The notes under the pieces: generated by a model
Seen by the model: the letters and a program-made list of their open reading frames with translations, nothing else
What the model was told of the DNA's origin: nothing
Database searches by the model: none
Part shown: positions 26,133 to 61,474 of the stretch, one piece after another
Numbering within the stretch: the stretch's first letter is position 1
Layout of the letters: every line of letters begins with the position of its first letter
Origin: Candidatus Coproplasma stercorigallinarum
GTDB lineage: Bacteria > Bacillota > Clostridia > Christensenellales > Borkfalkiaceae
Direction: 5' to 3'
DNA length: 64,000 nt
Assembly: GCA_018712655.1 (NCBI GenBank)
Contig: DVGQ01000019.1
Span: forward strand, 856-64,855
Position numbers and translations under genes: made by a program

Positions 26133-26199
26133 ACTATAAGACAGAAAAAAATTTTTTCAATACGTTCAACGCGAACTTAGATTTTAAAGCGTAAACTTA
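26133..26199 (-). promoter_or_regulatory. GH3-1 promoter with LytTR-type direct repeats
   Basis: Minus strand: TAAGTTTAC (26199-26191) -11 nt- TAAGTTCGC (26179-26171) -10 nt- TTGAAA (26160-26155) -16 nt- TATAGT (26138-26133). Each 9-mer matches 8/9 of the AgrA/LytTR consensus [TA][AC][CA]GTTN[AG][TG]. Confidence 0.55.
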
Positions 26200-46237: not shown

Positions 46238-46307
46238 AGTATATTTTATAAATCGCAAAAGTGTCAATATCTACCGCACGAACGATATTCTGTACCGCAC
46301 GAATCAA
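46238..46307 (-). promoter_or_regulatory. GH3-4 operon promoter with LytTR-type direct repeats
   Basis: Minus strand: TTGATTCGT (46307-46299) -12 nt- ATCGTTCGT (46286-46278) -10 nt- TTGACA (46267-46262) -18 nt- TATACT (46243-46238). An exact 11-mer TTCGTGCGGTA is repeated with a 21-nt period (plus-strand TACCGCACGAA at 46272-46282 and 46293-46303). Confidence 0.6.
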
Positions 46308-47677
46308 TCTTCCGAACAGAGGTCCGAGTGAGCATTTTTACCCGTCTTCACTGGCAGAAGAACGCTTATGCGGAAGATGTTTCCGCAGGCGTCCGCCTTG
46401 ACGTTTCCGCCGTATTTTTCGGCTATGTGGCGCACGCTTTTAAGGCCGTAGCCGTGCATTCCGCGGTCCTGCTTCTTTGTTGCGGGCAGCCCGTCTTCGT
46501 TGAAACTGAGCGTGCCGTCGAAGTAGTTTTCAACCATTATGGATATCCAGCCGCGCACCTCGTGTATGTTCACGCCTATGCAGCGCATACACTCGTCGTC
46601 AACGGCGCTCACCGCCTCTACCGCGTTGTCTATTATGTTGCCGAACAGGGCGTAAAGGTCGCCGTTTGCCATAAAGCCGATATTGCGGCAGTCGGCTATG
46701 CAGGTAATTCTTATGTTCTTGCTGCGGCAGAGAATGCTCTTGTCTGTGAGAATGAGGTCTATTACGTCGTTGCCCGTCTTTACCGAAGCATCGTACAGCG
46801 AAACGATTTCATTCATCTCGGCATAAGTCTTTTCGTCGAGCGCGTCGGCGCCGCGGCGGGCGTTAAGAAGGTGCTTGATGTCGTGGCACTTCATATTTAT
46901 CAGGTCAATCTCTTCCTTCCTCATCGCGTACTGCCTGTTGGCTTTGGAAAGAAGTTCGGTGACCACTTCCAGCTCGCCCACCACCGTTTTTTCAAACAGG
47001 ATGTTGTGCTGGATATAGAACACGAGTATGCAGCACAGAGTGTTGTAAATGCTTGCAACGCTGTCGTACAATTTGTTGTAATCGTCCACTATATACACCA
47101 CAACGGCGTTGAGCACCACGTCTATGAGCAGAATGACGCCCGAAAGCACGAACATACCAGCGCTTTTAAGGCGCAGATTTTTGCCGTCGCCTATCTTACG
47201 GCCTATCGCAAAATACACAATCGCGTATACCGCGAGATAGATGTTGACGTATACCAGCGCCGCGACGAACGTAGTCGTATCTACAGACGAAAGGTCGAAT
47301 GGGTCGTCACCGTACATTCCCTGCGCAACGAAAATATCGAACTGCGTAAAAATCAGTTTGAAAATTTCATAGGCGAGGTGCTGGACGGTGTATGCGGCTA
47401 TCGCACTGAACAGCAGACCCTTTGCAGAAGTTTCGTACATAAGAACGAGCGCGCCGCAGAACACGGCGAACATTGCAAGGAATATGAGCGAAGCCTGCCA
47501 GCCCGTGCCTGCCGCGCCCGTCATCGACAGCCCGAAAACGGAGAGATAGCACAGCGCCATTGCCCCGGCAAAGCGGACGGGAAACAGATTTCTGCGCGCG
47601 AACTTGCGCGAAAAAAGCATTCCCGCCACTATCAGCTCGGTCATAAACAGATATTCATACAACTGGAAAGCCGTCAC
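46304..47677 (-). CDS. AgrC-like (HPK10-type) GHKL sensor histidine kinase 2
   Basis: Polytopic N-terminus, H-box LINMKCHDIKHLL, N-box LFGNIIDNAVEAV, G-box GMHGYGLKSVRHIAEKYGG. Paralog of 26197..27534. Confidence 0.85.
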   Translation of the reverse strand: MTAFQLYEYLFMTELIVAGMLFSRKFARRNLFPVRFAGAMALCYLSVFGLSMTGAAGTGWQASLIFLAMFAVFCGALVLMYETSAKGLLFSAIAAYTVQHLAYEIFKLIFTQFDIFVAQGMYGDDPFDLSSVDTTTFVAALVYVNIYLAVYAIVYFAIGRKIGDGKNLRLKSAGMFVLSGVILLIDVVLNAVVVYIVDDYNKLYDSVASIYNTLCCILVFYIQHNILFEKTVVGELEVVTELLSKANRQYAMRKEEIDLINMKCHDIKHLLNARRGADALDEKTYAEMNEIVSLYDASVKTGNDVIDLILTDKSILCRSKNIRITCIADCRNIGFMANGDLYALFGNIIDNAVEAVSAVDDECMRCIGVNIHEVRGWISIMVENYFDGTLSFNEDGLPATKKQDRGMHGYGLKSVRHIAEKYGGNVKADACGNIFRISVLLPVKTGKNAHSDLCSED

Positions 47678-48390
47678 AGAAGTTTACCCCCGCCGGCGAT
47701 ATAGCTGTTGAATTCCTGCAAAAATTCCTTTCGGCGCATCTTCGAGATGACCAGCCTTTCGTTCATTATGACGACTTCGGTCGCGTTGACTTCGGTTATA
47801 TACTTCATATTGACGAGGTAACAGCGGTTGCATTGCGCAAAAGGAAGGCCTTCGAGCATCTCCTTTATTCCGCCTAGCGTGCCGCTGCACACCGTTGAGC
47901 CCTCTTCCGTATGGAAAATTATGGAGTGCTTCATAACCTCGACGTACATCAGCTTTTCGGTGTTGACAGCCTTTTTGCCGCCGCGGGTAGATACCCATAT
48001 GTTCCTGCCCTCGCGCTGGCGCATACAGTTGACCGCGCGCAGCATCTTCATCGAAAATTCAGCGTAGGTCACGGGCTTGACCATAAAATCGAAAGCGTCC
48101 ACCTCGTAGCCCTTCACCGCATACTGCGCAAGGTTGGTGACGAATATTATCATCACCTCGGTGTCGCGCTCCCTTATGCGCCGCACGAGTTCCATACCGT
48201 TCATTTCAGGCATATCAATGTCCATCATTATAAGTTCGTAGTCGCAGGAATAAACGGAAAGAAAATTGACCGAACTTTCAAAATGCACCGTTCTGAATTC
48301 GATGCCGTGCTCTGCGCCGTACTTTGAAAAGAAAGACGACAGCCGCTCTGCGGCCTTCTTGTCATCCTCTACGATGGCTACGTTAATCAT
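47674..48390 (-). CDS. LytTR-family response regulator 2
   Basis: Receiver (INVAIVEDD, LIMMDIDMPEMNG) plus LytTR domain (LMYVEVMKHSIIFHT...FAQCNRCYLVNMKYI). ATGA overlap with the kinase. Confidence 0.9.
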   Translation of the reverse strand: MINVAIVEDDKKAAERLSSFFSKYGAEHGIEFRTVHFESSVNFLSVYSCDYELIMMDIDMPEMNGMELVRRIRERDTEVMIIFVTNLAQYAVKGYEVDAFDFMVKPVTYAEFSMKMLRAVNCMRQREGRNIWVSTRGGKKAVNTEKLMYVEVMKHSIIFHTEEGSTVCSGTLGGIKEMLEGLPFAQCNRCYLVNMKYITEVNATEVVIMNERLVISKMRRKEFLQEFNSYIAGGGKLL

Positions 48391-48524: not shown

Positions 48525-48638
48525 GTATCAGAATTACTTTTCAACATAATGCTCAAAACTGCAAATAAAACTATTCATTTATATAAGTCTTCAACATCTC
48601 ACATTGCCGCATAGTTTTATGGGTAGCAAATAAATACA

Positions 48639-48663
48639 GCGCCCGCAATTTATTTGCGGGCGC
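48639..48663 (-). terminator. Terminator after the phosphoesterase gene
   Basis: GCGCCCGCAA-tttat-TTGCGGGCGC. The minus transcript continues TGTATTTATTTGC. Confidence 0.7.
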
Positions 48664-48670
48664 CGCACGG

Positions 48671-49363
48671 TCAGAACTTATATTCCTTTACATAAAACGC
48701 GCGGCAGGTATCTATGCAGAAACAGCCGAGAGGCCCGCCAAGCCACGTCCCCGTATCGAGGTGTATTTTGTAATAATCGCAAATATCGTCGCCGCGGCGG
48801 CCGTCGCGCTTATAGGCAAGAATTCTGTCCTCCCCGCACACGTTGCGCGTGGGAGTATGGCCGAAACAAACGCATTTGCAGTCTTTCGGGACGACCTCGG
48901 GGCGCATAAAGTTCCTGTCTTCCAGCAGAACAGCTTCGCGCGCCGATTGGGGCGGCACTATGCGGCAATTATCGTCCAGCGGCAGTCCCGCGTGCACGCA
49001 GATGAACTCCTCTTCCTCTATGTAGAGCGGCAGGGCTTCGAGCTTGTCTACCGTTTCCCAGCGCAGAAGTTTTCCGTCGCCGCCGAACCATCTTTGCAAA
49101 TCGGCGAGCACTTTATCGAAGTCGGAAGGCGACGACTTCATTACCGCCCAATAGTAGGCGAGAAAGCCGTATTCGTGGTTGCCGAGAATGCACTTTACGT
49201 TGGGCGCGTTCAGCAGAAAATCAAGCAGCCGTACGCTTTCGTCGCCCTTGTCCACCATATCGCCGCACACATACAGGACGTCGCTTGCCGAAAATTTAAT
49301 TTTATCAAGCAGGCGCATACAAAGCCCGTATTCGCCGTGGATATCAGAAATAACGTACCTCAT
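48671..49363 (-). CDS. PPP-family metallophosphoesterase (PrpE/ApaH/lambda-phosphatase-like)
   Basis: Signature motifs DIHG (VISDIHGEYG), GDMVDKG and GNHE in canonical order and spacing. Start set to ATG 49363; the listed ORF begins at TTG 49426. Confidence 0.8.
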   Translation of the reverse strand: MRYVISDIHGEYGLCMRLLDKIKFSASDVLYVCGDMVDKGDESVRLLDFLLNAPNVKCILGNHEYGFLAYYWAVMKSSPSDFDKVLADLQRWFGGDGKLLRWETVDKLEALPLYIEEEEFICVHAGLPLDDNCRIVPPQSAREAVLLEDRNFMRPEVVPKDCKCVCFGHTPTRNVCGEDRILAYKRDGRRGDDICDYYKIHLDTGTWLGGPLGCFCIDTCRAFYVKEYKF

Positions 49364-49508
49364 AAACAGTTTTCCGCCATAAGCATATAGTAGCGCCCGC
49401 ACAAAAACGTTGTTTGCCGCGCGCAAGACAGATAAGACCTCCTTTGCGGGGGTCTTGCGGCAACAAAACAGACATTAAAGAAAATTTACAACGCGTAAAC
49501 GCGCAGGT

Positions 49509-51671
49509 TCAGACGCCGTTTTCAACAATTTTATAGCCCATTGAAGATATTTCGCTGTAAAGGCGGTCCAAATCCATATAGTCGTACTGATAAATGTTAT
49601 ACAGCTCCCTCAGCCTTGAATCAGTCGGCGGCACATTGTTTATATCCTCGCCCGGATACATAACGCCGAATTTATATTCTATAAGCTCTTTCAGGCCGTA
49701 ATAGGTAGTGAGGCAGGCGTGCTGTTTGAGCGCCGTGTTTTTATGTGGCGCCACGATTTTTACGTTGCCCTCTTTATCCATCTCCTCTTTGGCGACTATA
49801 TCCTTCTTTTTCATCTGCTTGTAGTCATACAGAATGTACAGGGCGTTCCAGCGCAGATGTTCGATGAACGCCAGCACGTTGGACGACTGCAAGCCGAAAA
49901 AGAAACCGATATCGGCATAATTGTTTTCCCTGCCCGTATTTACGTATCTCTTATCGAATTCCTCTTCCGAAATTCCCGTATCGCCGTCGCCTGCGCGCTT
50001 TACCATATCAAACCCGAGCAGGTTGAGCTTGAACGGAAGGTTGAGGGCGTGATACAAATTCGACGCCTGTTCAATCATAGGGCGGCTTTCCCAATTTTCG
50101 CGCATAAGCTCGCGGCAGTCATAATTTTGCAGGCTCTTATCCAACGCCTCGCCCTGCTGCCCGACGGGAAGTTTGCGTATATCAGCCAGCCACTGCGGCA
50201 TATTGCCGATGCTGTCGTACAGCATATTGAGGCGGCGGGCAAGTTCAGAAAGTTCGTCGTTTACTATATAGCCGTGGGTATATATTTTGCTTTCGTCGCC
50301 GAAATAAATTACCTTTCCTCCGCCGAAATTTTCGGCGCTGCTCTTGGCCCTGACGAATATGCGGTAGTTTCCGTCTTCCGGCAGCAGCCTTCTGATGGTC
50401 TGCGCGTAAGAGGCGTCTTCCAGGTCGGCATTCAGCGAGATTATAAAGTAAGTGAAGCTGTTGTCCGTGACCAGTTCTTTAAACTTCTTTTTTGCCTCAA
50501 CCGAATTTATGTCGGTCTGACCTACTTCGGCTATGTCGCAAATCCTTTCGGGACGGGGGAAATCGCAGTCTTTGAAATCCTCGTCGAACTCGTAAAGCAT
50601 ACGCGAGAAAAATTCATTGTGCAGCGCCTCGCCCCTGTGGTCATAGATATAGTAATGCACGGGCTTCGATTGAAGTCTGTCGCCGCACGGGGCGGCAAAC
50701 TGGAACTGCATAGAGCACATTCTGAAAAGCTGATAGTTCATCTTGCCGAAGCCTATGAATACGATGTTTATATCCTTGTCGGGTTTAAGCGTATAATTTT
50801 CGTTGTAAAAGCTGCGGGGTATGAATTTGGTTACGGGATATTGCGCCACGAACTGCCGCGCGATAAGCTCGTGCTTGCTGAAACAACTTATGAACGAGCC
50901 CACCTTGTCGTCCGTATCCGCGATGAGGCGCTCCTTTATTATTTTTACGCTGTCCTGATTGGCTTCCATATTCAACGTCACCCTCTTACCGCCCCGTTTG
51001 ACGGTTATAAATTCTTCGATTACGCCTGTATACGATATATTGCAACCGCTGAAAAGTATAAGATTATATTCCTTGCCGCACAGTTTTTTGCCGAAATCTT
51101 TAAGCGCGCCACGGGCGACGGTGTAGCCGCCCTTGATAAGCTCGGCATAGCGGGCGCGGGTAACCGCAGGCATAAGCAGCAGACAGTTTTTATTGTTTTT
51201 TGCAAACCTTAGCGAATCTGCGCAGTCGCCTATGACTATGTCGCACCCTCTGCGCAGGGCGCGCCTTAAAGAAATGTAATTGCGTATGCGCGGGCTGAAA
51301 AAGCTGGCAACGCTTAAAACGACAGCCGCTCCGCCCGCAACGTAAGCCATTACGAACGCCGCGTAAAATACGGGATATTCATTGCATATGGGGGTTACGA
51401 GCGAGCTGTCGGCTTTGAATTTGGTTATAACTTCGAGAACGGAGCCGAGCAGCGAAAAGCAACTGAAAAAATCAAGGCCGTTGCCGTTGTAAACCCACGC
51501 CGCCATATGCAGAAAGTAAATGAGCATAAGCGTCGGCGCGAGGTATATCAGATTCTTTTTTGAAATTATCAGTTCGCCCCTGTCTTTAACCGTGCGCACA
51601 GTGGTGAAAGCTATGGCGAAAATCATCGCCGCAGATATTATCAACAATAAAATTCCAGTAACTAAAAACAT
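49509..51671 (-). CDS. Membrane protein: about 4 TM + Rossmann-like modules + C-terminal RyR-like domain
   Basis: N-terminal helices (LVTGILLLIISAAMIFAIAF, YPVFYAAFVMAYVAGGAAVVLSVASFF). Glycine-loop-like INIVFIGFGKMN. C-terminal segment with RyR-domain hallmarks (MIEQASNLYHALNLPFKLNLLGF, AFIEHLRWNALY, KQHACLTTYYGL, ISSMGYKIV). Confidence 0.55.
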   Translation of the reverse strand: MFLVTGILLLIISAAMIFAIAFTTVRTVKDRGELIISKKNLIYLAPTLMLIYFLHMAAWVYNGNGLDFFSCFSLLGSVLEVITKFKADSSLVTPICNEYPVFYAAFVMAYVAGGAAVVLSVASFFSPRIRNYISLRRALRRGCDIVIGDCADSLRFAKNNKNCLLLMPAVTRARYAELIKGGYTVARGALKDFGKKLCGKEYNLILFSGCNISYTGVIEEFITVKRGGKRVTLNMEANQDSVKIIKERLIADTDDKVGSFISCFSKHELIARQFVAQYPVTKFIPRSFYNENYTLKPDKDINIVFIGFGKMNYQLFRMCSMQFQFAAPCGDRLQSKPVHYYIYDHRGEALHNEFFSRMLYEFDEDFKDCDFPRPERICDIAEVGQTDINSVEAKKKFKELVTDNSFTYFIISLNADLEDASYAQTIRRLLPEDGNYRIFVRAKSSAENFGGGKVIYFGDESKIYTHGYIVNDELSELARRLNMLYDSIGNMPQWLADIRKLPVGQQGEALDKSLQNYDCRELMRENWESRPMIEQASNLYHALNLPFKLNLLGFDMVKRAGDGDTGISEEEFDKRYVNTGRENNYADIGFFFGLQSSNVLAFIEHLRWNALYILYDYKQMKKKDIVAKEEMDKEGNVKIVAPHKNTALKQHACLTTYYGLKELIEYKFGVMYPGEDINNVPPTDSRLRELYNIYQYDYMDLDRLYSEISSMGYKIVENGV

Positions 51672-51714
51672 ACCGCCACCGCCATTTTTTCTTTCGCGTT
51701 CCGCCGCTATAAAA

Positions 51715-53496
51715 TCAAAGATTTATTTCCGGACTGTTGTCCTTTACGTACGAACACCAGATGCCGTTTTCCACAATCTCTTCGCGGGCAATTTCCTTCA
51801 CAAACTTAGCTATCTCTTCCGCGGGGCGCGCCTTGGCCTCGCTCCACCTGGCATATGCCGAAGCGTAGAACATACTCATCTTGCGGTTGTCTTCCGCCTT
51901 GCGGCCGAATGAAAGTTTGCCGAAATAGCCCGTAAACAGCAGCGACGCCGCCGTCACCGTTCCCATCACTATTATGCCTGAGCTGCGCCAGGAAATTCCG
52001 CCCGCAAGTTCCCCGTTCCAGAACCACTCTTTGCCGAAGGCGCCAAGTATGTGCCCCGCCGCCTCCATTAAAAAGATTACGATGTATACCGCAACGGTGA
52101 TTATCGTAAGGCAGTTTGAAATCTTTGCATATTTTTCGGCTTTGTTTCTGTTTTTGACAAGTTTGTCCGTGTGATATCTGAGCTGACCGTCGGGATTTTT
52201 GCTGTTGCCTATCCACACGTCTATTATCTTCGTCGTTTCCATTTCGGGAACTTCGGCCGCGCTTACGGCGGCAACGGCCTGCAAAGCCTTGTATATCCAC
52301 GCAGAATCCACCTTCTGAGTCCAGGAATACAGCCTGCACACGTTGGCGAGTATCTGCTTTTCGCGCAGGCACAGCGACATATAGAACTGTATTCTGAACG
52401 CCTCTGAAAACGCCCTGTATTCGATATATTTTGAATGGTATCCCTTTTTGTTGCCCCGCACTATTATCCAGATAAGCGCGGCCACGGCGAGTGCGCACGG
52501 AAATATCATAAACGTCAGCGACGCGTCGTCGTACAGCATAAACGAAAATGCCACAAAGGTACCTATAATGGCTATGAGCAGTATTAACCTGTTGTAATAT
52601 TTCTGATTCCCGCCGAAAGAAACGGCGTCTGCCTTGGAATAGTGATAGCCTATATTTTTACGGTAATCGTCCAGCTCTTCGGGTCTGTCCCACAGCCTGC
52701 CGCCGCCTACGGCTCCCGCACAATTCTCGCCGTTGTACCTCACTGTTTTTGCTATTATTTCGGCCATATATGCGGGCATATCGTCGCATACGAAGTAATT
52801 GCCGAACTCCTCCGCACCCTTCTCTCCGGCGAGCGCGCCCGCCAGCCAGCGCCTGCGGACGGGCTGTTTTTCTCCGCCGCTTCTGCGGGCGTGCAGCCAC
52901 AGTACGGCGCAGTCGTTGAGTATTCCGGGATTGAACAGATGGTCGCCGTCAAGGAATTTGTGGCCGAGCGCAAAATTTATCACTTCGACTGTGCCGCACC
53001 CGAACTGCTTTTCCGGCGGGCACCCGTCCCAAAGGGCGAGCAGCACGTGGCAATGCTCAGCTATGTAAATCCCCGCCTGACGGTATTCGTAGTCGTCGGC
53101 GCCCATCTTAAATTCGCTGCCGAGCCACGCGGCATTCTTTTCAAGGTCGGGGGCAACCATTACCCGCTCTGACTTTGCAAGGTACGAACGCAGCTTTTCC
53201 GCGTCTTCGGCGTCGGTAAAACTTTTTATGTATTTTTCCTCGCTGCACGGCAGCACGGCATACACGGCTATGCCCATACCGAAGGCAACCTCCGCGCACA
53301 GCATATCCGCTCCCTGAGCAAACGCATTGAGCATTATGACGGGAGTATCGCCCCCGTCGCCGCCGCCCGAACAGGCCGACCTGATTTCCGAAAGCGCGGC
53401 GGCAACTTCACGTTTAAGTTCGTCCTTGTCCCTGCCGTCGATATTCCTGTGGCCCGTAACGCCTATGACGACGGGAATTCTTTCGCAACTCACCAT
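51715..53496 (-). CDS. SLOG-domain protein fused to a 4-TM, SLATT-like membrane module
   Basis: N-terminal Rossmannoid with SLOG hallmarks: IPVVIGVTGHR (Gly-rich loop after strand 1), NAFAQGADMLCAE, AVLP, ALWDG...GCGTVEVINFA. C-terminal half has four TM helices. The last pair is preceded and followed by amphipathic helices (RYHTDKLVKNRNKAEKYAKISN ... KLSFGRKAEDNRKMSMFYASAYARW), as in SLATT modules. Confidence 0.6.
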   Translation of the reverse strand: MVSCERIPVVIGVTGHRNIDGRDKDELKREVAAALSEIRSACSGGGDGGDTPVIMLNAFAQGADMLCAEVAFGMGIAVYAVLPCSEEKYIKSFTDAEDAEKLRSYLAKSERVMVAPDLEKNAAWLGSEFKMGADDYEYRQAGIYIAEHCHVLLALWDGCPPEKQFGCGTVEVINFALGHKFLDGDHLFNPGILNDCAVLWLHARRSGGEKQPVRRRWLAGALAGEKGAEEFGNYFVCDDMPAYMAEIIAKTVRYNGENCAGAVGGGRLWDRPEELDDYRKNIGYHYSKADAVSFGGNQKYYNRLILLIAIIGTFVAFSFMLYDDASLTFMIFPCALAVAALIWIIVRGNKKGYHSKYIEYRAFSEAFRIQFYMSLCLREKQILANVCRLYSWTQKVDSAWIYKALQAVAAVSAAEVPEMETTKIIDVWIGNSKNPDGQLRYHTDKLVKNRNKAEKYAKISNCLTIITVAVYIVIFLMEAAGHILGAFGKEWFWNGELAGGISWRSSGIIVMGTVTAASLLFTGYFGKLSFGRKAEDNRKMSMFYASAYARWSEAKARPAEEIAKFVKEIAREEIVENGIWCSYVKDNSPEINL

Positions 53497-53590
53497 ACTG
53501 CCTTCACCGTAAAATTGATTTTCTGCGCCGCGCAGAACGCGTCAGCGCGCCCTGCGTTTTAAGAATATCCGGATAATTTTCCGTCCGATG

Positions 53591-54124
53591 CTAAATTTCC
53601 TGTTTTTTAATCTGCTCTGAAAAGTTGATATTGCGGTTGCCCCACGGAACAAGCACAAAATTTTTCAGCGGCTTCGAATAAATATCTATCGGATATATTT
53701 TGCAGGCGGAGTCTTCGTCGTTTATATATTGTTCGCAAACGTATCCGTTAGACTCGTAAAATTTTTTTGCAATTTCGTTTTCAAACCTGTCGGTATACAA
53801 TCTGCAAAATTTGAAGCCGCGCCTTTTTGCTTCCTCTTCAAAACGGCTTAGCGCCATACTTCCGAAGCCCTGCCGCCTGAATTCTTTCAGAATTCCGAAC
53901 CATCCGAGCCAGGCGCTTTCGGTATCGGCGGCATAATAATACAGCCCGCAGATTCCTATATTTTCTCCGCCGTGCCTGACTATCCAATAAACGTTGTCCG
54001 TAAGTTTTTCAACAGCCTCGCGGTAATTGACGTATGCGCTGTGCGATGGGAATAATTCGTTTTGTATTTTCAGTGCGACGTCAAAATTATCTCTGTTCAG
54101 ATTTACAAATTCAAGCGCGCTCAC
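53591..54124 (-). CDS. GNAT-family N-acetyltransferase
   Basis: Acetyl-CoA motif A: FGILKEFRRQGFGSMALSRFEEEAKRRG, with C-terminal FYESNGY. Start moved to GTG 54124, which gives a GTGA overlap with the TIR-gene stop and sits 7 nt after GGAG. The listed ORF starts at another GTG (54151). Confidence 0.8.
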   Translation of the reverse strand: MSALEFVNLNRDNFDVALKIQNELFPSHSAYVNYREAVEKLTDNVYWIVRHGGENIGICGLYYYAADTESAWLGWFGILKEFRRQGFGSMALSRFEEEAKRRGFKFCRLYTDRFENEIAKKFYESNGYVCEQYINDEDSACKIYPIDIYSKPLKNFVLVPWGNRNINFSEQIKKQEI

Positions 54125-55176
54125 TTTTTTTCTCCGTTTAGTTTTGAACACAATGAAGGGTATTTCTTTTGCAGATACGGATGATTTTTTATTTGCGAAA
54201 TATCTGCGTCATAAATCTTTCCGTCAGCCATATTTTTCGCAACGCACGTGAAGCCCAGGGACTGAACTACTTTTTCAAGGATGTGGGAATATACTGAAAT
54301 GCCTATCCTCTTTATAGCAATGCCTCTGTCGTACATATCTTCTATACGGCTGAACAGCTTATCCCACAGAAGCATCATATTTTTATTGTTTTCATATTCT
54401 TTCAGAATAGGCATAATTGCGATGTAGCAGTAAAATTCCCCGCCGAAATCGTAGAATTCAAGCATATCGGCGTCGACGATTTTTTCGCCGCGCAGAATGG
54501 AATTATAATTTTCCTCGTTCATTAGAACAAACTGCCAATAGCCGATTATGTTGTCATCTTTAACCAACAGCGAATATAATTCGGGATAATTGCTTACGTG
54601 GTCAAGCCACGAATCGACGTTGCCCTCTATGCTTTCGTTAATCGTAAAATCATTGTTGAGCGTAAGGTAGTCTATTTCAATTGTTTCCATTACGATTTTT
54701 TTTGCGTCATAGCCTATATTTTTTGCTTCTGCATAATCGAGGACGGTCGGCCCGGGATAATGCACCGCGCTCTCCTCTGTATTTTGGACGCTTGTGTTGT
54801 TTATCGCCGCAATCAATGCGTCAAGTCCGCCTTTGAAATCGGGAGCCGTTATCCAATGAGTGACGCCGAGGTAAAACTCCATAGCGTCTGACGGCACAGA
54901 ATCGTCGATTTTATAAGGAATGATAGTTTTATTGTGCAATACGGCGGAATTTATTTCGCGCAAAACATAGCCGGAAATATTTGATTCTTTGGTAAAAATC
55001 AAAGTTACCATATCCTGGGTTTTTATGGCGTCAACAATTTCGCACGCATAATCTTTTCCGGGTGTAATATCGCGGGGAGCAATATAACATTTAAGCCCGC
55101 GCTTTTCCAGCTCCTCAACGATGCGGAAAGCAATTTCTTTGTTGTGCGTGGAATACGATATAAACGTTGTTTTCAT
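54121..55176 (-). CDS. TIR-domain protein with an uncharacterised C-terminal domain of about 220 aa
   Basis: N-terminus TTFISYSTHNKEIAFRIVEELEKRGLKCYIAPRDITPGKDY...VTLIFTKESNISGYVLREINSAV...IIPYKID matches the bacterial TIR_2 pattern, including the conserved Glu after the S-x-[WY] element. The C-terminal part is an alpha/beta region that may be GNAT-like but lacks a clear Q/R-x-x-G-x-G/A motif. Start set to ATG 55176 behind AGGGGAA. Confidence 0.7.
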   Translation of the reverse strand: MKTTFISYSTHNKEIAFRIVEELEKRGLKCYIAPRDITPGKDYACEIVDAIKTQDMVTLIFTKESNISGYVLREINSAVLHNKTIIPYKIDDSVPSDAMEFYLGVTHWITAPDFKGGLDALIAAINNTSVQNTEESAVHYPGPTVLDYAEAKNIGYDAKKIVMETIEIDYLTLNNDFTINESIEGNVDSWLDHVSNYPELYSLLVKDDNIIGYWQFVLMNEENYNSILRGEKIVDADMLEFYDFGGEFYCYIAIMPILKEYENNKNMMLLWDKLFSRIEDMYDRGIAIKRIGISVYSHILEKVVQSLGFTCVAKNMADGKIYDADISQIKNHPYLQKKYPSLCSKLNGEKK

Positions 55177-55302
55177 AATTTTCCCCTGACCGTATAAATA
55201 TTGGTTTAATAATATAATAACATCACGGATATCCTTTGTCAATATCATAAAAATCCGATTTAATTCAACCGAAAAATATAATTTTCAAATTAAACACAGC
55301 TA

Positions 55303-55331
55303 TTGCAAACAGGAGGACTATTTGATATAAT
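55303..55331 (+). promoter_or_regulatory. Predicted promoter of the HD-RyR-SLOG gene
   Basis: TTGCAA (55303-55308), 17 nt, TATAAT (55326-55331), in an AT-rich divergent intergenic region. GGGGGAA RBS before ATG 55361. Confidence 0.55.
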
Positions 55332-55360
55332 TAAAATACAATACGCTTGGGGGAATACTT

Positions 55361-57631
55361 ATGAAAACGCTGGCAAAACTTGCCAATAAATTTTTTGAAA
55401 ACGTCTGCTTCGCCGAAATTCCCGGCACGGCCTGCCCGGAGAGCGACAGGCAGTGCTTTATAAGGGCGCTGAACCAATTTTTGAGTTCGGGCGACAAGGG
55501 CGACGCATTTACCGTATATTTTTGTTTCAGCGAAATATTCAGGCTGTTCGGCAAAGGCTACGCAAACACCCAAAAATTGCTCGAACTGCTTTCAGACCAC
55601 GAATACCACTCGGGCGAACTGCTTTCAAAACACCGCGACCACTACTCCCACTCCGTCTACGTTTTTGCGTTAGGCCTGGCAATATATGCCAACGACGGCG
55701 TATTCCGCTCGGCATTTCTGCGATTTTACGGGCAGAAAGACGACACCCTGTCGCGCAGGGATTTTTTGTACTGCTGGGGAATGACGGCGCTGTTCCACGA
55801 CACGGGATATCCCTTTCAGCTGGCCTACGAACAGATTAAAAATTACTGCGAAGATTTGTGGGGCAGCGGCGCTGCAACCAACCCGTTCGTGACATTCGGG
55901 AACTACGATAATTTTACAGGCATAGCGGAAGAAGACGGCAGGCGCATAAGCGCGGCGCTGAAAACAGACAAAAAGTTCGCCTCGCTGAACGACCTGTTCG
56001 CATACGGGCTGAACCTGCGCTTCGGCTATGACGAAGAGGATATGCGCGTGCGCCTTAAAAAGCGCATACTCGAACAGAGGACTTTTCTGGACCACGGCTA
56101 TTTCAGCGCCGCCATACTTGCGCGCCAATTGCTTGAAAGGCCCGACATAGAGCTTACCCCAAAGCGGCTGGACGTGCTGACGGCGATAGTCCTGCACAAC
56201 AGCCTTTCGCGCTACGACTTCAACAACGAGCGCCCCGCGTCCCCCGACAATCATCCCCTTGCATATCTACTGATTCTGTGCGACGAACTGCAAAACTGGG
56301 ACAGGCAGGCCTACGGCAAGGCGAGCAAATACGACCCCGTCGCGTGGGACATAAGGCTGGCGATAAACGATGATTACATAAGCATCACGTATATTTTTGA
56401 CAGCAGCACAGCCACCGACCGCGAGAGCGGCGAAGACAGGATAAACAAACATTACGGCGATATTCAAAAAGGCAAATTCGTAAAGAACATACTCGGCGGC
56501 GACGGCAGAGGCGGACTTTTGAAAAGCTCGCTGAACCTTACGGCCGACGTAGCCGTGGCGCCCAAAGAAAAGCGCAACAAACTTTACGCCTCCGAAAACA
56601 ACTTCATAAATCTGTGCGATTTTGCAAGGGCCATTCACGCGAGTTACAGTAAACTTTGCCTGGAAACGGGATTGGAAAAACCGAAAGCCTTTGACGACCT
56701 TTCGCTGGAATTCAAAGTTTCAAACATAGAACAGGCCAAATCTTACGCCCGGAAACTTGAACTTATAAACTGTTTTTACAGCAGCAAAGACCTGGACTAT
56801 CCCGTAGTGGAAAACTTTAAAGACGGCGATTACGGGGCAATAGGTTCAGACAACCTCGGCTTTTTGTGCAGGGAAGAGCACGTGCGCTGGGTAAAGGAAA
56901 AGCTGGGAATGGGCTGGAAATACGGCACAGGCTACTCCTCCTCCGCCGAGCGCAATGAAAAGAAGATTCACAAAGACATAGTCCCCTACGAAATGCTTGC
57001 GCCGGAAGAGCAGGCCAAAGACGAACTGATGGTGAACAACATCATACCGTTTTTAAGAAAGTTCGGGCACAATATCAGAATTTATAACTACCGCATAGGC
57101 AGAAAGCCCGACCTGGAAATTGCGGGAACAGGCCACAGATTCTTTACCGACAACCCTGCCAGGCTGAAAGAGCAGATTAAAAAACAACTTGAAAAATACA
57201 GCAAGACCAACCGCGTGGTCGTGCGTACCTGTTTTGCACACGGCGCCGACCAGCTGATAGCCGAATGCGCAAACGAAATGGGCATAACAACAAAGGCCGT
57301 TTTGCCCGTCGGATACGAAGACTATATAAAAATGGTGCGCAACGACTGCCTGGCGCACGGCTATGCCTACACCGAAAAGGACGAACTTAAATTGCGGCAT
57401 CTGCTTGCCCAGACGGTAGTATGCAAAGTAGTATCCTCGCCCGACGGCGGATACAAAGCGGCGATAAATTACATAATGAAGAAGTGCGACAAGGTGATTG
57501 CCGTATGCGACTGCGAATATGCAGACGAAAGCGGCGCAGAAAGATGCGGCACCGCGCGCTGCCTTGAAATTGCAAAGCGGTACAGCCTTACCCCAGGCGA
57601 CGACATAAAAATCATACGTTGCCATAAATAA
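55361..57631 (+). CDS. Three-domain protein: HD phosphohydrolase + RyR domain + C-terminal SLOG domain
   Basis: HD: HRDHYSHSVYVFALGL ... ALFHDTGYP ... DHGYFSA ... LHN ... LILCDELQNWDR. RyR: FARAIHASY...VSNIEQAKSYARKL...CREEHVRWVKEKLGMGWKYG...KIHKDIVPYEMLAPEEQAKDELMVNNI. SLOG: LEIAGTGHR...CFAHGADQLIAECA...AVLP...AVCD...RCGTARCLEIA, the same motif series as in 51715..53496. Confidence 0.65.
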   Translation: MKTLAKLANKFFENVCFAEIPGTACPESDRQCFIRALNQFLSSGDKGDAFTVYFCFSEIFRLFGKGYANTQKLLELLSDHEYHSGELLSKHRDHYSHSVYVFALGLAIYANDGVFRSAFLRFYGQKDDTLSRRDFLYCWGMTALFHDTGYPFQLAYEQIKNYCEDLWGSGAATNPFVTFGNYDNFTGIAEEDGRRISAALKTDKKFASLNDLFAYGLNLRFGYDEEDMRVRLKKRILEQRTFLDHGYFSAAILARQLLERPDIELTPKRLDVLTAIVLHNSLSRYDFNNERPASPDNHPLAYLLILCDELQNWDRQAYGKASKYDPVAWDIRLAINDDYISITYIFDSSTATDRESGEDRINKHYGDIQKGKFVKNILGGDGRGGLLKSSLNLTADVAVAPKEKRNKLYASENNFINLCDFARAIHASYSKLCLETGLEKPKAFDDLSLEFKVSNIEQAKSYARKLELINCFYSSKDLDYPVVENFKDGDYGAIGSDNLGFLCREEHVRWVKEKLGMGWKYGTGYSSSAERNEKKIHKDIVPYEMLAPEEQAKDELMVNNIIPFLRKFGHNIRIYNYRIGRKPDLEIAGTGHRFFTDNPARLKEQIKKQLEKYSKTNRVVVRTCFAHGADQLIAECANEMGITTKAVLPVGYEDYIKMVRNDCLAHGYAYTEKDELKLRHLLAQTVVCKVVSSPDGGYKAAINYIMKKCDKVIAVCDCEYADESGAERCGTARCLEIAKRYSLTPGDDIKIIRCHK

Positions 57632-57646
57632 AAAACATAAACCGAA

Positions 57647-57672
57647 CGGGCGGCCTTTAAAAAGGCCGCCCG
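57647..57672. terminator. Bidirectional terminator between convergent genes
   Basis: CGGGCGGCCTTT-aa-AAAGGCCGCCCG, a 12-bp stem. An A-rich run lies upstream on the plus strand (U-tract for the minus strand). Confidence 0.65.
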
Positions 57673-57702
57673 CATTCATTTAAAAGACATTATCCCGGGC
57701 AA

Positions 57703-60585
57703 TCACGTATATTTTATCATCTTGAAGTATTTTTCCTTATGGTTATTGCCTTCGCCTCTGTTGTCGTAGGCGGACACATAAGGAATGAATCCCATAAGGT
57801 TATACAGGCTCATCGCCGAAATGTTATTTTCGTAGACAGACAAAACCACGTTTACGCCCGTCTGCTTTTCGGCAACCCTTATAATATTGTTCAGCATACA
57901 TTTGCCGTAGCCGCGGTTGCGGTAGTTTTCGTCCACGCATATGTCCGAAACATAATAATTGTCGCCGATTGCATCGTCGAACGTGTCGCACAGACTTTCA
58001 AAGGCCGACCTGGTTTCCTCAGTTACAGGCACCTTTGCCGCATTGAAGGCGTTGACCATTACATTTTCGTCCCAGGCGGGAAGTGTGCGGTAAAGCGTTG
58101 CCGCGGCAATCACTCCGTTATCGTCCGCTCCCGAGATGCGCAGCAGCCGAACATATCTTTTATTGAATACCGAATGCCCCTTGTCGAAGAGTATTTCCAG
58201 CACTTTTACGGCATTTTCCATATTGCCGAACATACGGCGGTACATAATATCGGAACAATAAATCAGTTCCGCCGCTTTTTTGTAATCTTCTTTATTTTCA
58301 AGCTGTTCAAACGACGCGCTGACGTTTGGCAGATACGCGTTGTACGGAATTATGTGGGGATTTATCCAAACATACTCCACCTTTCCCGAACGGCCCGGTA
58401 TGTGCAGGCACTTTTTTACGTTGGGCACACAGTAATACGCCTCGCCCGTACGCAATACCTCGTTTGAAATTATCTTTATCCTTATGGCCCTCTTGTTTAT
58501 CTCGCTGTCTACCGAAAGATATGCGTACCTGTACCCGTCCTGCGACATAACGCTCTGCGAGCATATTCCTATTACGGGATATATCGCGCCTTCGATTGGA
58601 GCGTCCTTTTCGGGCGAACCGTCGCGCATATAGCCTAAATACCCGCAGAAATTTTCGTGCAGCTTTCCGAGCCAGGAATCAACCGAACGCACGTCGCCGA
58701 ACGAAGATATTATGCGCTGTTTGAACGCGGCAAGCCTGTCGGAATTTATCAGGCTGCGCTTGCCTGTCATATCGTAAAACTGCTCGTTCTTGTTGGTGTT
58801 GCGCACATTCAGCGAAGCATTGAGTTTTTCAAGCTCTTCAAAGGAATCTTTTACGAGAGATTTAAGTTTTTCAAGCGTACTTCCGTCGAAATCCTTTATC
58901 AGGCACATAGTATTGTAGCGCTCGTAGATATTTCTGCGGGCGACAGACGTGGCCTGACGGAAGAAATCATAGCTTATGGAAGAGAGCTGTTTGCCACCCG
59001 AGTCAGAGAAGAACAGCATTTCACTCTCTTCTATATCCCTGATTTTCTGCTTATCGTAATAGCTGAGCAACCCGTCGTAAAAAACAACTATAAACATATT
59101 GAAGTTTATAATTTTGTTTACGTAATAAATGACCTTTTCCTTCGGGTTCAGCGAAGCATTTTCGTAAACATTGTTGATGTCATCCAGGATTTCGGCAACC
59201 GACGAGAGCGACTCGTTGAAAGACACGCTCACTTCGTTTGCCGTGAGCAGTTTGGTGGCGAAAAATATGAGCGCCTGAACCTGACAGCTTACGATGTTGT
59301 TCGCATTCCTTAAAGTAAGTTTGCTCGTCGGGTCGCGTATTATCTCGTAAGTATCTTCAAGTTTTTTCACGTTCTCGCCAAACCTGAGCCTGAACGCGTT
59401 TTTTACTGCGTTATAGCTCAAATCGGTATTTTTAAACAGATATGTAAGCAGATTATATATTCCGACTTCGAGAAGCAGAAAGATAAAAATTTCGTCCCAA
59501 TGAATTATCTGGGAATTCCCGAGCTTTTTGAAAACTTCTCCGTAATCGTTGCGATAGTGGTTATATACCTTCCTTTTGCTGTCTATGCTTATAAGGTCAG
59601 AGATGGTCATTGCAAGGTACTTTATGTACTTGTTGTCTACGAAGAAGAAATCCCTAAAAAAATAGTTCTCGCTGCCTCCCGGCACGTTGAAGAGCCTGTA
59701 TTTGAACATAAAGTCTTCTATCGCGGTGTCGCTCACAACGCACACTTTATATCCCTTACCCGCCGCGTTTTCTTCGGAAGACTTGTCCAGAAAAACAATT
59801 TTGTACTCCATCCTGGCAAACAGCGGCGCATATTCCGCCGCAAGCATCTGGCTTTTTTGCGGATTGTCTGCCGTGAATTTGCGGGGGTCGTCAATCCACA
59901 CGCCGTAAAGATAGTCAATCTGGCCGTTGATTTCGGTAAGCAGTTCGTCGAGGCACAGCTTTTCGCCGTCGATGGTCAGGTTTACCGTCCTCAGCGGCCT
60001 GTTGCAGCAGGGCAGCGGCACGTATTCGGCGGAAGCGTTCCCCAAAAACGGGAAGGCACGGAAAAACCTTTTAAGGCTATCGAACCCGAACTGCGCATCG
60101 TAACGACTGGAAAGCATACGCTTTTTAAGGGCGAAAATGAACTTGCTGAGGTCGTTGCCGAGCACCGAAAAATTGAAGCACCCCTCCATTCCCACCTTTT
60201 GTATAAATCCGTCGGCAGGGGAAAGCGAGGAATCGACTTGAAGATTGAGCAATACGTTTTCCACCAGATTGAAGTCAAGCCGCCTGGTGGAATAACATTC
60301 GTCGAACATATTGTAAAGGCGCACCATCGAATTGGAAAAAGACGCTATCTCGCGAGCGCGCTCTTCGGCGTCGAGTTCTTCGAACCACGCTTTATAGCTT
60401 ACAAATTTTTTGTAAGTTATTAAAGTGACAAGATAGAGCGTATTTTTGAAATAATCGATATATTTGCCTATATTTGAAAGGAAAGAGCTGCTTGTTTCGC
60501 CCGACTCAAAGATGATATCCCTCAGCACGCTGTCGGGAATCAGCCTGATTATTTCGTTGCGCCGGGCAGTAAGTTCGTCAGTCAT
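57703..60585 (-). CDS. Large (960 aa) uncharacterised protein with a C-terminal GNAT acetyltransferase domain
   Basis: The last ~170 aa carry GNAT motif A (ICVDENYRNRGYGKCMLNNIIRVAEK) and LYNLMGF. The first ~780 aa are helical, N/K/Y/F-rich, with no motif I recognise. ATG overlaps the ParA-like gene stop by 8 nt. Confidence 0.55.
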   Translation of the reverse strand: MTDELTARRNEIIRLIPDSVLRDIIFESGETSSSFLSNIGKYIDYFKNTLYLVTLITYKKFVSYKAWFEELDAEERAREIASFSNSMVRLYNMFDECYSTRRLDFNLVENVLLNLQVDSSLSPADGFIQKVGMEGCFNFSVLGNDLSKFIFALKKRMLSSRYDAQFGFDSLKRFFRAFPFLGNASAEYVPLPCCNRPLRTVNLTIDGEKLCLDELLTEINGQIDYLYGVWIDDPRKFTADNPQKSQMLAAEYAPLFARMEYKIVFLDKSSEENAAGKGYKVCVVSDTAIEDFMFKYRLFNVPGGSENYFFRDFFFVDNKYIKYLAMTISDLISIDSKRKVYNHYRNDYGEVFKKLGNSQIIHWDEIFIFLLLEVGIYNLLTYLFKNTDLSYNAVKNAFRLRFGENVKKLEDTYEIIRDPTSKLTLRNANNIVSCQVQALIFFATKLLTANEVSVSFNESLSSVAEILDDINNVYENASLNPKEKVIYYVNKIINFNMFIVVFYDGLLSYYDKQKIRDIEESEMLFFSDSGGKQLSSISYDFFRQATSVARRNIYERYNTMCLIKDFDGSTLEKLKSLVKDSFEELEKLNASLNVRNTNKNEQFYDMTGKRSLINSDRLAAFKQRIISSFGDVRSVDSWLGKLHENFCGYLGYMRDGSPEKDAPIEGAIYPVIGICSQSVMSQDGYRYAYLSVDSEINKRAIRIKIISNEVLRTGEAYYCVPNVKKCLHIPGRSGKVEYVWINPHIIPYNAYLPNVSASFEQLENKEDYKKAAELIYCSDIMYRRMFGNMENAVKVLEILFDKGHSVFNKRYVRLLRISGADDNGVIAAATLYRTLPAWDENVMVNAFNAAKVPVTEETRSAFESLCDTFDDAIGDNYYVSDICVDENYRNRGYGKCMLNNIIRVAEKQTGVNVVLSVYENNISAMSLYNLMGFIPYVSAYDNRGEGNNHKEKYFKMIKYT

Positions 60586-61474
60586 CGGCTATCACCTTCG
60601 CAAGTTTTTCGTATTTTCTCTGCGCTTCGGCCTCGTCTTCGGCAAGTTTATAAATTTCTGCCTTGGTAAGCTCGTATTCCTTGGCTTTGAGGCGCAGATT
60701 GGTCTCTTCGAACTTGAACAGCCTTACTTCGTGAATACCTCCTTCGTCTATCAGGTCGGTAGTCACCTTGTTGTGTCCCGCTTCGCCCGCCACAGTAAGG
60801 TCGTCCTTAATTCTGCGCAGAATATTTTCGATGCTGTATATGGTGCCTTCGGCAGACGGCACGGCGTTAGGAACTATTATATAATCCTTGTTGTCGAAAT
60901 TTTTCTGACGGGCGATGAATTCCCTGGTGCCCTCCTTGAACTGCTTGGTTATTCGCATAGCAACGACTATTTTATCGGAAATGCGCAGCGCGACGCTGGC
61001 GGGCAGCTGGCCGCCGGCGGGGTTATCCATAACCAGGGCTTTGCACCCGAATTTTTCGAGCCTGTTGGCGAAATTTTCAAGTTCGACGTTGCGTCCGTCG
61101 TAGTTGCTGTCGCCGTTGAGCTTTTCGTTTGAATGCGCGGTGATAAACAGTATATTGCCGTTCTTGCCCTCGCCGAGGCCGAGCATTTTTCCGACGGGAA
61201 TCATCTTTCCCAGAATCTCTTCCTTGGTGGCAAAGGCGTCCGCCGTAATATCGGTCTGGTTGAGAACTTTTACCACGTCGAGTTTATCGGCAGTATCGGC
61301 GCCCTCGTCCACGAGCAGATAAGAAAGACCTTTGCTGTCTATGTCGAGGTCGAGCACAACAACAGGCTCTTCGGGCGTGGCACCAAGCTCGTCGGCCAGA
61401 TACGATATCGTATTGTAAAGCATCGATGTTCTGCCTGCGCCGCCCTTATACGAAAAAAACGAAACTTTAAGCAT
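60578..61474 (-). CDS. ParA/MinD-like (SIMIBI class) P-loop ATPase with deviant Walker A
   Basis: KVSFFSYKGGAGRTS (deviant Walker A, with Arg in place of the usual second Lys). Walker A-prime VVVLDLDIDSKGLS. Walker B ALVMDNPAGG. C-terminal charged helix. Confidence 0.7.
   Translation of the reverse strand: MLKVSFFSYKGGAGRTSMLYNTISYLADELGATPEEPVVVLDLDIDSKGLSYLLVDEGADTADKLDVVKVLNQTDITADAFATKEEILGKMIPVGKMLGLGEGKNGNILFITAHSNEKLNGDSNYDGRNVELENFANRLEKFGCKALVMDNPAGGQLPASVALRISDKIVVAMRITKQFKEGTREFIARQKNFDNKDYIIVPNAVPSAEGTIYSIENILRRIKDDLTVAGEAGHNKVTTDLIDEGGIHEVRLFKFEETNLRLKAKEYELTKAEIYKLAEDEAEAQRKYEKLAKVIADD

Follow-up and report, generated by a model that had tools for sequence, protein, structure and literature searches.

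A TIR-linked gene island encoding SLOG and RyR-like domain proteins in Candidatus Coproplasma stercorigallinarum, a candidate Thoeris-like signalling system

Organisation of the island

The subject of this analysis is a gene island of ~16 kb in Candidatus Coproplasma stercorigallinarum, a Christensenellales-like gut bacterium of the Clostridia. The island, which is largely contained in a 64,000-nt stretch of contig DVGQ01000019.1 (hereafter the window), encodes TIR-domain proteins together with proteins carrying SLOG and RyR-like domains, and we consider it a candidate Thoeris-like signalling system. A previous, sequence-only reading had proposed a cluster of six adjacent genes in this region, and all six open reading frames (ORFs) were recovered with the proposed boundaries in an ORF check of the window. 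As listed in Table 1, the genes follow one another in the order TIR2→I→H→G, then E, and then TIR1 (gene D)→C→B→A→F. The same reading had paired one TIR protein with two SLOG partners; this pairing stands, with one partner carrying four transmembrane (TM) segments and the other an HD-like domain, but the unit is larger than the six-gene cluster, since a second TIR gene (TIR2) lies upstream of I and the n4-n1-n2 module formed by I, H and G recurs beside E in other genomes.

The genes of the D-C-B-A-F unit are closely spaced, with a 4-nt overlap of C and D and intervals of 94 nt (B-C), 43 nt (A-B) and 82 nt (F-A), and the strong minus-strand terminator predicted downstream of this five-gene unit was found as a hairpin (Table 1). 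D and E diverge from an intergenic region holding two promoter-like sites, TTGACA-17-TATTAT with TG on the minus strand (55242-55214) and TTGCAA-17-TATAAT with TG on the plus strand (55303-55331), E being expressed from its own divergent promoter-like site, opposite D. Although the D ORF has an alternative start at 55248, the ATG at 55176 is the better start, with a GGGGA Shine-Dalgarno sequence in front of it and the minus-strand promoter-like site upstream. On the other side of E, the hairpin that separates E from the convergent gene G is probably a bidirectional terminator.

Table 1. Genes and sequence features of the island (positions in the window)
Feature	Position	Strand	Basis or remark
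Intrinsic-terminator-like hairpin	48634..48668	-	15-bp stem, 9 GC pairs, T-rich tail; closes D-C-B-A-F unit
F, calcineurin-like / ApaH-like metallophosphoesterase	48671..49426	-	Last gene of the operon
A, 720-aa membrane protein (TM-RCK-RyR-like)	49509..51671	-	AlphaFold2 (AF2)/Foldseek and deep hhalign
B, 593-aa SLOG + 4-TM SLATT-like protein	51715..53496	-	hhalign, sub-threshold DUF4231, TM segments
C, GNAT acetyltransferase, 177 aa	53591..54124	-	GNAT E=5.7e-14
D (TIR1), TIR_2 + C-terminal domain	54121..55176	-	TIR_2 E=5.8e-16
Divergent promoter region D/E, 184 nt	55177..55360	.	Two promoter-like sites
E, 756-aa soluble HD-RyR-SLOG protein	55361..57631	+	Pfam RyR, PDB profiles, Foldseek
GC-rich hairpin between convergent E and G	57647..57672	.	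11-bp stem; sequence
G (family n2), 960 aa, C-terminal GNAT	57703..60585	-	Family recurrence
H (family n1), KGGVGR-motif ParA/MinD-like AAA ATPase	60578..61474	-	NF047398 5.8e-15, below cutoff
I (family n4), 671-aa soluble protein without family assignment	61519..63534	-	Recurrence
TIR2, last 153 codons of TIR_2 gene	63538..64000	-	Same-species contigs L090-L092

Several ORFs lie within or opposite A, B and E (49719..51212, plus strand; 51806..52498, 55670..56254 and 57053..57679, minus strand). Their translations are of low complexity or rich in Arg/Gly, and these shadow ORFs should not be annotated as genes. The GC content falls to 0.43 over 54001..56000, which covers the TIR gene and the divergent promoter, compared with 0.49-0.58 in the rest of the window, a deviation that would agree with the TIR module having been acquired horizontally.

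Domain composition of the TIR, SLOG and RyR-like proteins

D had been read as a TIR protein, and this was borne out by its TIR_2 domain (nt 54844..55164; 59.5 bits against a cutoff of 28), which contains the catalytic Glu in the motif VLREI, a residue kept in 73/73 aligned TIRs from related loci (loci are designated below by L numbers). The remaining 210 aa form a C-terminal domain without a Pfam match, which among the fetched related loci was matched only in L037 and which is a candidate sensor. For TIR2, only the non-TIR C-terminal part lies inside the window, the TIR domain falling beyond its end; the full gene on the same-species contigs (98.7% nt identity) encodes a 339-aa protein with PF13676 and is located directly upstream of I. 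Comparison of D with the PADLOC models gave weak ThsB matches (3e-4), the best match being the SAVED-TIR effector model, and the NCBIfam Thoeris type III ThcB4 model reached 22 bits against a cutoff of 220. PADLOC returned nothing for A, B, C, E, G and I, including no ThsA-like match in A, B or E, and the Thoeris types I/II models of PADLOC-DB v2 and NCBIfam gave no significant ThsA + ThsB match.

B combines an N-terminal SLOG domain (nt 52942..53472) with a 4-TM SLATT-like module (nt 51907..52605), followed by a conserved C-terminal helix. Residues 9-185 of B are homologous to residues 585-747 of E (hhalign 99.4%, E=5e-22), and the two proteins therefore share one YpsA-like SLOG family. Both the YpsA/DprA/LOG-type Rossmann-like fold and the glycine-rich loops of the SLOG superfamily (GxTGHR, GAD, WDG…GGT) are present, while the Pfam YpsA and DprA HMMs (hidden Markov models) reached E values of only ~0.2 on this domain. 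The four TM segments of B are located within residues 301-349 and 456-526, and the first pair overlaps a match to DUF4231 at residues 298-373 (E=7e-4; 20.5 bits against a cutoff of 24.7), a family recorded as PF14015 in 58/120 listed B homologues and which we take to be a member of the SLATT clan. The definitions of SLOG and SLATT reportedly go back to Burroughs et al. in 2015. A profile comparison revealed no internal duplication that would link the second TM pair to the first, a PDB sequence-profile search with the B family returned nothing useful, and NCBIfam had no match for A, B, E or the E family.

E is a soluble protein composed of an HD-like domain (nt 55598..56305), a RyR/R12 domain (nt 56612..57085) and the YpsA-like SLOG domain (nt 57113..57616). 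The RyR domain scored 31.6 bits against the Pfam cutoff of 27.4 (PF02026), the same Pfam family was found in 40/40 relatives, and the E-family profile matched solved RyR repeats in the PDB at 8e-14. In a Foldseek search with the AF2 model of E (predicted local distance difference test, pLDDT, 85), the C-terminal domain matched YpsA (2nx2, E=7.5e-5, TMt 0.69) as well as DprA, LOG, the MoCo-carrier protein and TRPM5, and the model also matched Repeat12 (R12) of human RyR3. The HD domain was approached by several routes. Pfam HD (PF01966) scored 14-15 bits on E against a cutoff of 22, and HD was the sole recurrent family in the relatives (10/40 full-length proteins and 13/32 diverse N-termini, best E=6e-5). 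Residues H94, H97, H146-D147, D244-H245, H279 and D308, which form the pattern H..H…HD…DH…H…D, are invariant down to 35% identity. PDB sequence-profile searches of the E N-terminus with two alignments left the HD assignment unconfirmed, and it is the least secure of the domain calls.

The RyR domain, which the sequence-only reading had left as an unexplained element, can now be related to a known activity. The phage PF02026 protein RyDEP cleaves 2'/3'cADPR (cADPR, cyclic ADP-ribose), several of its homologues bind these molecules with nanomolar affinity, and its ligand/catalytic residues are H75, W78, H100 and D117 (Lopez Rivera et al., 2026 preprint, PMC13232231). These residues correspond to H507, W510, H537 and D554 of E, which are kept in 166, 166, 159 and 163 of 166 non-identical relatives, short HD-RyR proteins included. 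The canonical motif of phage and animal repeats (H-x2-W, 22 residues, H-P, 17 residues, D) has the RyDEP spacing, and E differs by a 5-residue loop insertion (H..W-(22/27)-H-(17)-D). As a separate observation, a segment encoded at 3922-4305 of MT836912.1 (hit H1), an 8.3-kb 'Bacteriophage sp.' contig that was obtained from human faeces and is unannotated, covers 99% of the E RyR region with 32% identity.

Retention of all four RyDEP residues raises the question of whether E would act as an off-switch rather than as an effector, its RyR and HD domains degrading the TIR signal in the manner of the ring nucleases of type III CRISPR systems, with B and A as the sole effectors. The divergent promoter-like site of E and the degenerate SLOG motif of its lineage would fit such a role. 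So would the size of the E family (1524 matches; at least 546 stretches), which greatly exceeds that of the A and B families, as one would predict for a shared regulator. However, phage RyR homologues with the same conserved residues mostly bind the signal only (PMC13232231), and E or a shorter HD-RyR protein is often the sole partner beside a TIR gene (e.g. L014, L027, L078, L084), an arrangement that would leave no effector. We therefore regard a purely regulatory E as possible, albeit unlikely.

Protein A starts with 3-4 N-terminal TM helices (nt 51294..51671), followed by a tandem RCK/TrkA_N-like Rossmann region with a conserved GFGKxN loop (nt 50277..51245) and a RyR(R12)-like C-terminus (nt 49659..50252). 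The AF2 model (pLDDT 87), in which the C-terminal domain is helical, matched the TrkA gating ring (4j9v, E=5e-4, 412 aligned columns, TM-scores 0.27/0.41) and also MthK, Slo2.2 and KefC. A has no Pfam or NCBIfam match, Pfam TrkA_N included, the PDB sequence-profile search with the A family returned nothing useful, and a Foldseek comparison of the model with viral structures (BFVD) was uninformative. Neither a K+ selectivity filter of the TVGYG type nor a pore signature was recognised in its TM helices. The C-terminus of A was compared with the RyR region of E by hhalign, which gave E=0.01-0.09 with shallow profiles and 89.5% (E=2e-6, 140 columns) with deep profiles of 172 and 198 sequences, the EHxRW and K.H…Y..L motifs being in register in the deep alignment. 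This domain is thus probably RyR-like. Residues H605, W608 and H651 are kept in 155, 163 and 161 of 163 sequences, with Tyr, Phe or Ala at the position of the Asp. Because the Asp is replaced in this way, we infer that A would be a binder rather than a glycosidase.

A profile search collected 851 representatives of the A family. A further family of ~650 aa (n5) adjoins E or TIR genes in several loci (L074:9826-11775, L022, L030, L053, L080, L084, L089). It combines TM helices and a Rossmann region with a more canonical-looking RyR motif (EHRRW…RHNPNLVSWGEL) and had no Pfam match at E<=0.01.

Taken together, these comparisons uphold most of the domain architectures originally proposed. For B, the SLOG domain and the four TM segments hold, while the SLATT match stays below threshold; for A, the TM helices and a TrkA/RCK-like Rossmann region were recovered, the RyR-like domain emerging from deep profiles alone; and for E, the RyR and SLOG domains were retrieved, with the HD score below the cutoff. 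The AF2 and Foldseek comparison was likewise favourable for the RyR and SLOG domains of E and for the TrkA-like part of A, though not for the RyR-like part of A. At the level of Pfam, TIR, GNAT and the RyR domain of E were recognised; A had no match, and HD and DUF4231 fell short in the window proteins.

Conserved linkage and genomic context

For the linkage analysis, one genome per GTDB species was scanned for E loci, and 79 species-level loci were kept, whose six-frame ORFs were compared with purpose-built HMMs. An A-like, B or TIR gene was present in 62% of the 79 E loci. A-like genes occurred in 29/79 (23 directly adjacent) and TIR genes in 32/79 (26 within 3 kb), and B was found in 4/79. 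When the count is restricted to the 44 loci flanked on each side by 5 kb or more, 32 have a TIR, A or B gene within 5 kb. Closest to E, within 1 kb, there are 12.5 TIR genes per 100 kb, a density that drops to 0.9-2.1 per 100 kb at distances of 3-10 kb. With these statistics, and with the linkage being kept across dozens of species, chance adjacency was rejected. The co-occurrence of homologues in other genomes, put forward as a check alongside the initial domain calls, is therefore observed for TIR, A, B and E.

E relatives were found in at least 546 stretches of species-representative genomes, mainly in Christensenellales-like, 'Borkfalkiaceae' and Coproplasma metagenome-assembled genomes (MAGs), and the 1524 E-family matches mentioned above come from another search. 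Shorter HD-RyR forms occur in Lachnospiraceae, Eggerthellaceae and [Clostridium] aminophilum, and such SLOG-less proteins adjoin TIR genes too (8/17). As the HD-RyR core is the conserved partner of TIR, and as it is found beside TIR even without SLOG, the sensor of E appears no less likely to be RyR than SLOG. B relatives were present in at least 416 metagenome stretches. Of 80 B loci, many of them on short contigs, 22 contain a TIR gene and 19 an HD-RyR gene directly upstream; B is linked to TIR in Clostridia as well, and distant relatives from soil and marine samples form simple two-gene TIR→B pairs in distant phyla. These figures are minimum values, as the TIR HMM was derived solely from the loci studied here. 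A phage origin was considered and rejected, since 2.9 million viral contigs yielded only 2 matches to E and 3 to the B SLOG domain.

Inspection of individual loci by hand (L001, L003, L008, L009, L010) revealed reshuffled combinations of TIR, A, B and E. The arrangements seen around homologues include B→TIR→…→STAND-TIR, TIR-LRR→HD-RyR→LRR→B (LRR, leucine-rich repeat), A→E→…→TIR-LRR and B→E→TIR-LRR, as well as divergent A and E genes and A alone. Several loci contain multiple TIRs. Such fusions of linked TIRs to a STAND NTPase or to LRRs recall Avs-like single-protein systems and, together with the SAVED-TIR effector model as best PADLOC match of D, could be taken to mean that the TIR proteins are themselves terminal effectors that deplete NAD+ (nicotinamide adenine dinucleotide), as in TIR-STING, TIR-pAgo and Avs-TIR, with A, B and E acting as independent systems or upstream sensors. 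We consider this highly improbable, as it would explain neither why three SLOG/RyR-bearing families cluster with TIR nor why two-gene pairs of TIR and a SLOG-4TM protein exist in distant phyla.

The same loci bear on a physiological explanation, according to which the genes would form an NAD/ADPR-linked ion-homeostasis or stress-signalling module of Christensenellales-like bacteria, RCK and RyR domains sensing adenine nucleotides and the TIR protein serving as a housekeeping enzyme of cADPR/NAD turnover. A indeed resembles the K+ gating modules of TrkA, MthK and KefC, A and E are sometimes found among housekeeping genes (L007, L010), the window has no known defence neighbours, and the island is stable within the species (L090-L092). 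On the other hand, gene combinations are reshuffled and neighbouring genes differ between loci, paralogous copies exist within one MAG (L021 and L075), the TIRs have multiplied and are fused to variable LRR, STAND or unknown domains, and mobile or conflict genes (Mob_Pre, recombinase, RHS) lie near some loci. Since shuffling, paralogy, TIR multiplication and mobile neighbours are hallmarks of conflict systems, a physiological role fits poorly and is in our opinion improbable.

The second operon of the island belongs to a recurrent module that became apparent when the neighbours of E, A and B were clustered. It comprises n4/n8 (~700-900 aa), the KGGVGR-type ParA-like ATPase n1 and n2/n9 (~770-990 aa), is usually preceded by a TIR gene in the order T→n4→n1→n2, and lies beside E in at least 12 other loci (e.g. 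L009, L027, L039, L042, L054, L058, L062, L069, L073). The family of G (n2) recurs in 12 loci next to TIR/E, that of H (n1) in 15 loci and that of I (n4) in 10 loci, in the same T→n4→n1→n2 order. G carries a lineage-specific C-terminal GNAT domain (1e-9), and H resembles the PADLOC candidate PDC-M28B (1.2e-8). No family or PDB match was obtained for I, a single-sequence PDB search with H gave no match, and literature searches on KGGVGR and PDC-M28 gave nothing relevant. In three loci (L036, L047, L064; e.g. L047:14591-15691), a radical-SAM gene (n11) is located between an A-like gene and an n4-n1-n9 module.

C and F were not seen again in related loci from other species; they are accessory at best and were accordingly rejected as core components. 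C, read at the outset as a GNAT gene coupled to D, is such a gene: its GTG start overlaps the D stop (GTGA), and an independent gene call on a same-species contig yields the identical 177-aa protein. Its adjacency to D thus stands, whereas its membership in the conserved cluster does not. F matches Pfam Metallophos (8.5e-15) and, below cutoff, the NCBIfam ApaH-like model (2.5e-19), and it adjoins A in other strains (L179/L180). GNAT domains are encountered repeatedly around the system, namely in gene C, at the C-terminus of G (57703..58100) and as a C-terminal fusion on the distant A-family member P0424, and are not conserved in most related loci.

The island is flanked in the window by cassettes of GH3 genes and LytTR/histidine-kinase two-component genes. 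The GH3 genes are repeated at 23066..26080, 29899..32904, 34679..38674 and 42757..45819, each near a pair of LytTR response regulator and GHKL histidine kinase genes (26197..27534, 46304..48390). In the strain locus L179, the A-F genes adjoin a GH3 cassette that is ~20 kb away in the window, which indicates rearrangement between paralogous cassettes.

A putative multi-output signalling island and its relation to known systems

We propose that the island is a Thoeris-like, multi-output TIR signalling conflict island whose signal receptors are SLOG and RyR domains, a reading based on sequence analysis to which we assign a probability of roughly 0.6. In this model, D and TIR2, each with a variable C-terminal domain, would sense infection and then make from NAD+ a cADPR-isomer-type signal derived from ADP-ribose. 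Three partners would read this signal, B and E through the YpsA-like SLOG domain and E and A through the RyR/R12 domain, which is canonical in the former and divergent in the latter. At the membrane, B and A would cause permeabilisation or ion flux, and E would be a soluble, signal-gated HD phosphohydrolase. As the His/Asp dyad of RyDEP is fully retained in its RyR domain, E may also hydrolyse the signal and thereby limit the response. The TIR2-I-H-G operon is included as a conserved companion module, to which we assign no role. Protection against phages would be the presumed outcome.

Several results weigh against this model. The RyR assignment of A is a single profile-profile result at 89.5%: no RyR Pfam match was found in 38 A-family members, neither RyR nor TrkA Pfam matches were found in 10 distant representatives (one of which bore a GNAT fusion), and no RyR structure was present among the top 50 Foldseek matches of A. 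The HD domain of E and the SLATT domain of B are sub-threshold in the window proteins, and with DUF4231 below its cutoff the SLATT assignment is the weaker call of the two made for B. In the sub-lineage that comprises the window E and P0239-P0250, the third SLOG motif is degenerate, reading AVCDC…ERCGT with a 7-residue loop deletion (57476..57590, E residues ~706-742) where most E relatives have ALWDG…NRGGT; the GxGHR and GAD motifs are retained. With regard to context, A can stand alone among housekeeping genes (L007), ~27% of the fully flanked E loci have no TIR, A or B gene nearby, and no known defence genes are present in the GH3 and two-component flanks of the window. The defence-island context anticipated in the sequence-only reading was accordingly not found, PADLOC recognising only the TIR protein, and weakly. 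Lastly, the predicted Thoeris effector 'SLOG and 4TM' did not confer defence on E. coli in the two distant examples that were tried, taken from Streptomyces and Nitrospira (Yirmiya et al., bioRxiv 10.64898/2025.12.03.692087).

Within the proposed signalling model, the more specific suggestion that host RyR/R12 domains are true receptors of TIR-made cADPR-type signals, on the TM-RCK protein A and the HD hydrolase E, is tentative, and we hold it at somewhat below even odds. Thoeris-type TIR signalling is widespread and its sensor repertoire is still being mapped, with RyR/R12 domains so far tied to cADPR isomers only through phage counter-defence; the island adds a host-side sensor candidate. 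If the suggestion is true, it would define a prokaryotic pathway leading from TIR through a cADPR-like signal to a RyR membrane protein, a possible antecedent of animal cADPR-RyR signalling, and it would pair the phage RyDEP sponges and glycosidases with a counterpart in the host. Binding of TIR products by the RyR domains of E and A would explain the phage RyR sponges, possibly as captured host domains, and would establish HD-RyR hydrolases and TM-RCK-RyR membrane proteins as new classes of effector. It would further offer a bacterial model for the debated direct action of cADPR-type molecules on RyR repeats and a natural case of one TIR island with several outputs. Uncultured gut and rumen Clostridia, organisms that are under-represented in defence-system surveys, contain these families in abundance.

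At the general level, the island shares with Thoeris a TIR protein with the catalytic Glu and adjacent partners with domains of a putative ADPR-signal-binding kind, here SLOG and RyR, whose linkage is conserved across genomes. A recent survey predicts 29 Thoeris types, describes two-effector operons and reports that the SLOG domain of ThsA binds 3'cADPR (10.64898/2025.12.03.692087), and YpsA-clade SLOG domains and SLATT had been predicted as sensors of ADPr-derived signals (PMC9503650). With type I Thoeris (the TIR protein ThsB and the SIR2-SLOG protein ThsA, with 3'cADPR as signal), the window shares the TIR with catalytic Glu and effectors with a SLOG-superfamily sensor. It differs in having no SIR2 and no ThsA match in PADLOC or NCBIfam, in its YpsA-like SLOG domain fused to TM segments or to HD-RyR, and in its two TIRs and three candidate outputs.

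The closest counterpart of B is the predicted effector 'SLOG and 4TM' (Tables S1 and S2 of 10.64898/2025.12.03.692087), which, compared by architecture only, has like B an N-terminal SLOG domain and four TM segments and is encoded beside a TIR gene; unlike it, the window B sits in a larger island with RyR proteins and a second TIR operon. The view of the initial reading that the combination was experimentally unexplored thus needs qualification, since TIR with 'SLOG and 4TM' has been tried in the two distant examples, and it holds for the RyR part within the literature searched. In the text and supplements of the survey, with two tables covered in part, the terms RyR, PF02026, DUF4231, TrkA and HD are absent. 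TIR-linked host RyR proteins of the HD-RyR(-SLOG) and TM-RCK-RyR-like kinds and the TIR-n4-n1-n2 arrangement likewise appear to be undescribed in the literature searched.

Membrane effectors paired with TIR are known from type VII, with the SLATT effector ThsH and canonical cADPR, and from type X, with the ion channel ThsK and a signal not yet known, the anti-phage activity of both types having been validated (10.64898/2025.12.03.692087). B, through its weak DUF4231/SLATT-clan match, and A, through its RCK architecture, resemble these effectors. ThsH is described as SLATT-annotated with predicted inter-protomer ligand pockets and no mention of SLOG, and B would add to this a SLOG domain and a second TM pair; no K+ selectivity filter is recognisable in A, which is likened to ThsK by description only. 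In A, two tandem Rossmann domains form the cytoplasmic part and are attached to a TM domain, as in MthK; A differs from TrkA, MthK and KefC in lacking a sequence-level match, in its low TM-scores, in having no TVGYG-type filter and in its extra RyR-like domain.

For the RyR domain, the relevant comparison is with RyDEP and its phage homologues, most of which, when tested, bind the signal without cleaving it although they carry the same residues, in a study restricted to viral proteins (PMC13232231). E contains PF02026 with the same H..W…H…D residues. However, RyDEP is a small phage anti-defence protein, whereas the RyR and RyR-like domains of the window are part of large host proteins whose genes are associated with TIR genes of the host. 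This points to a function as sensor or regulator on the side of defence.

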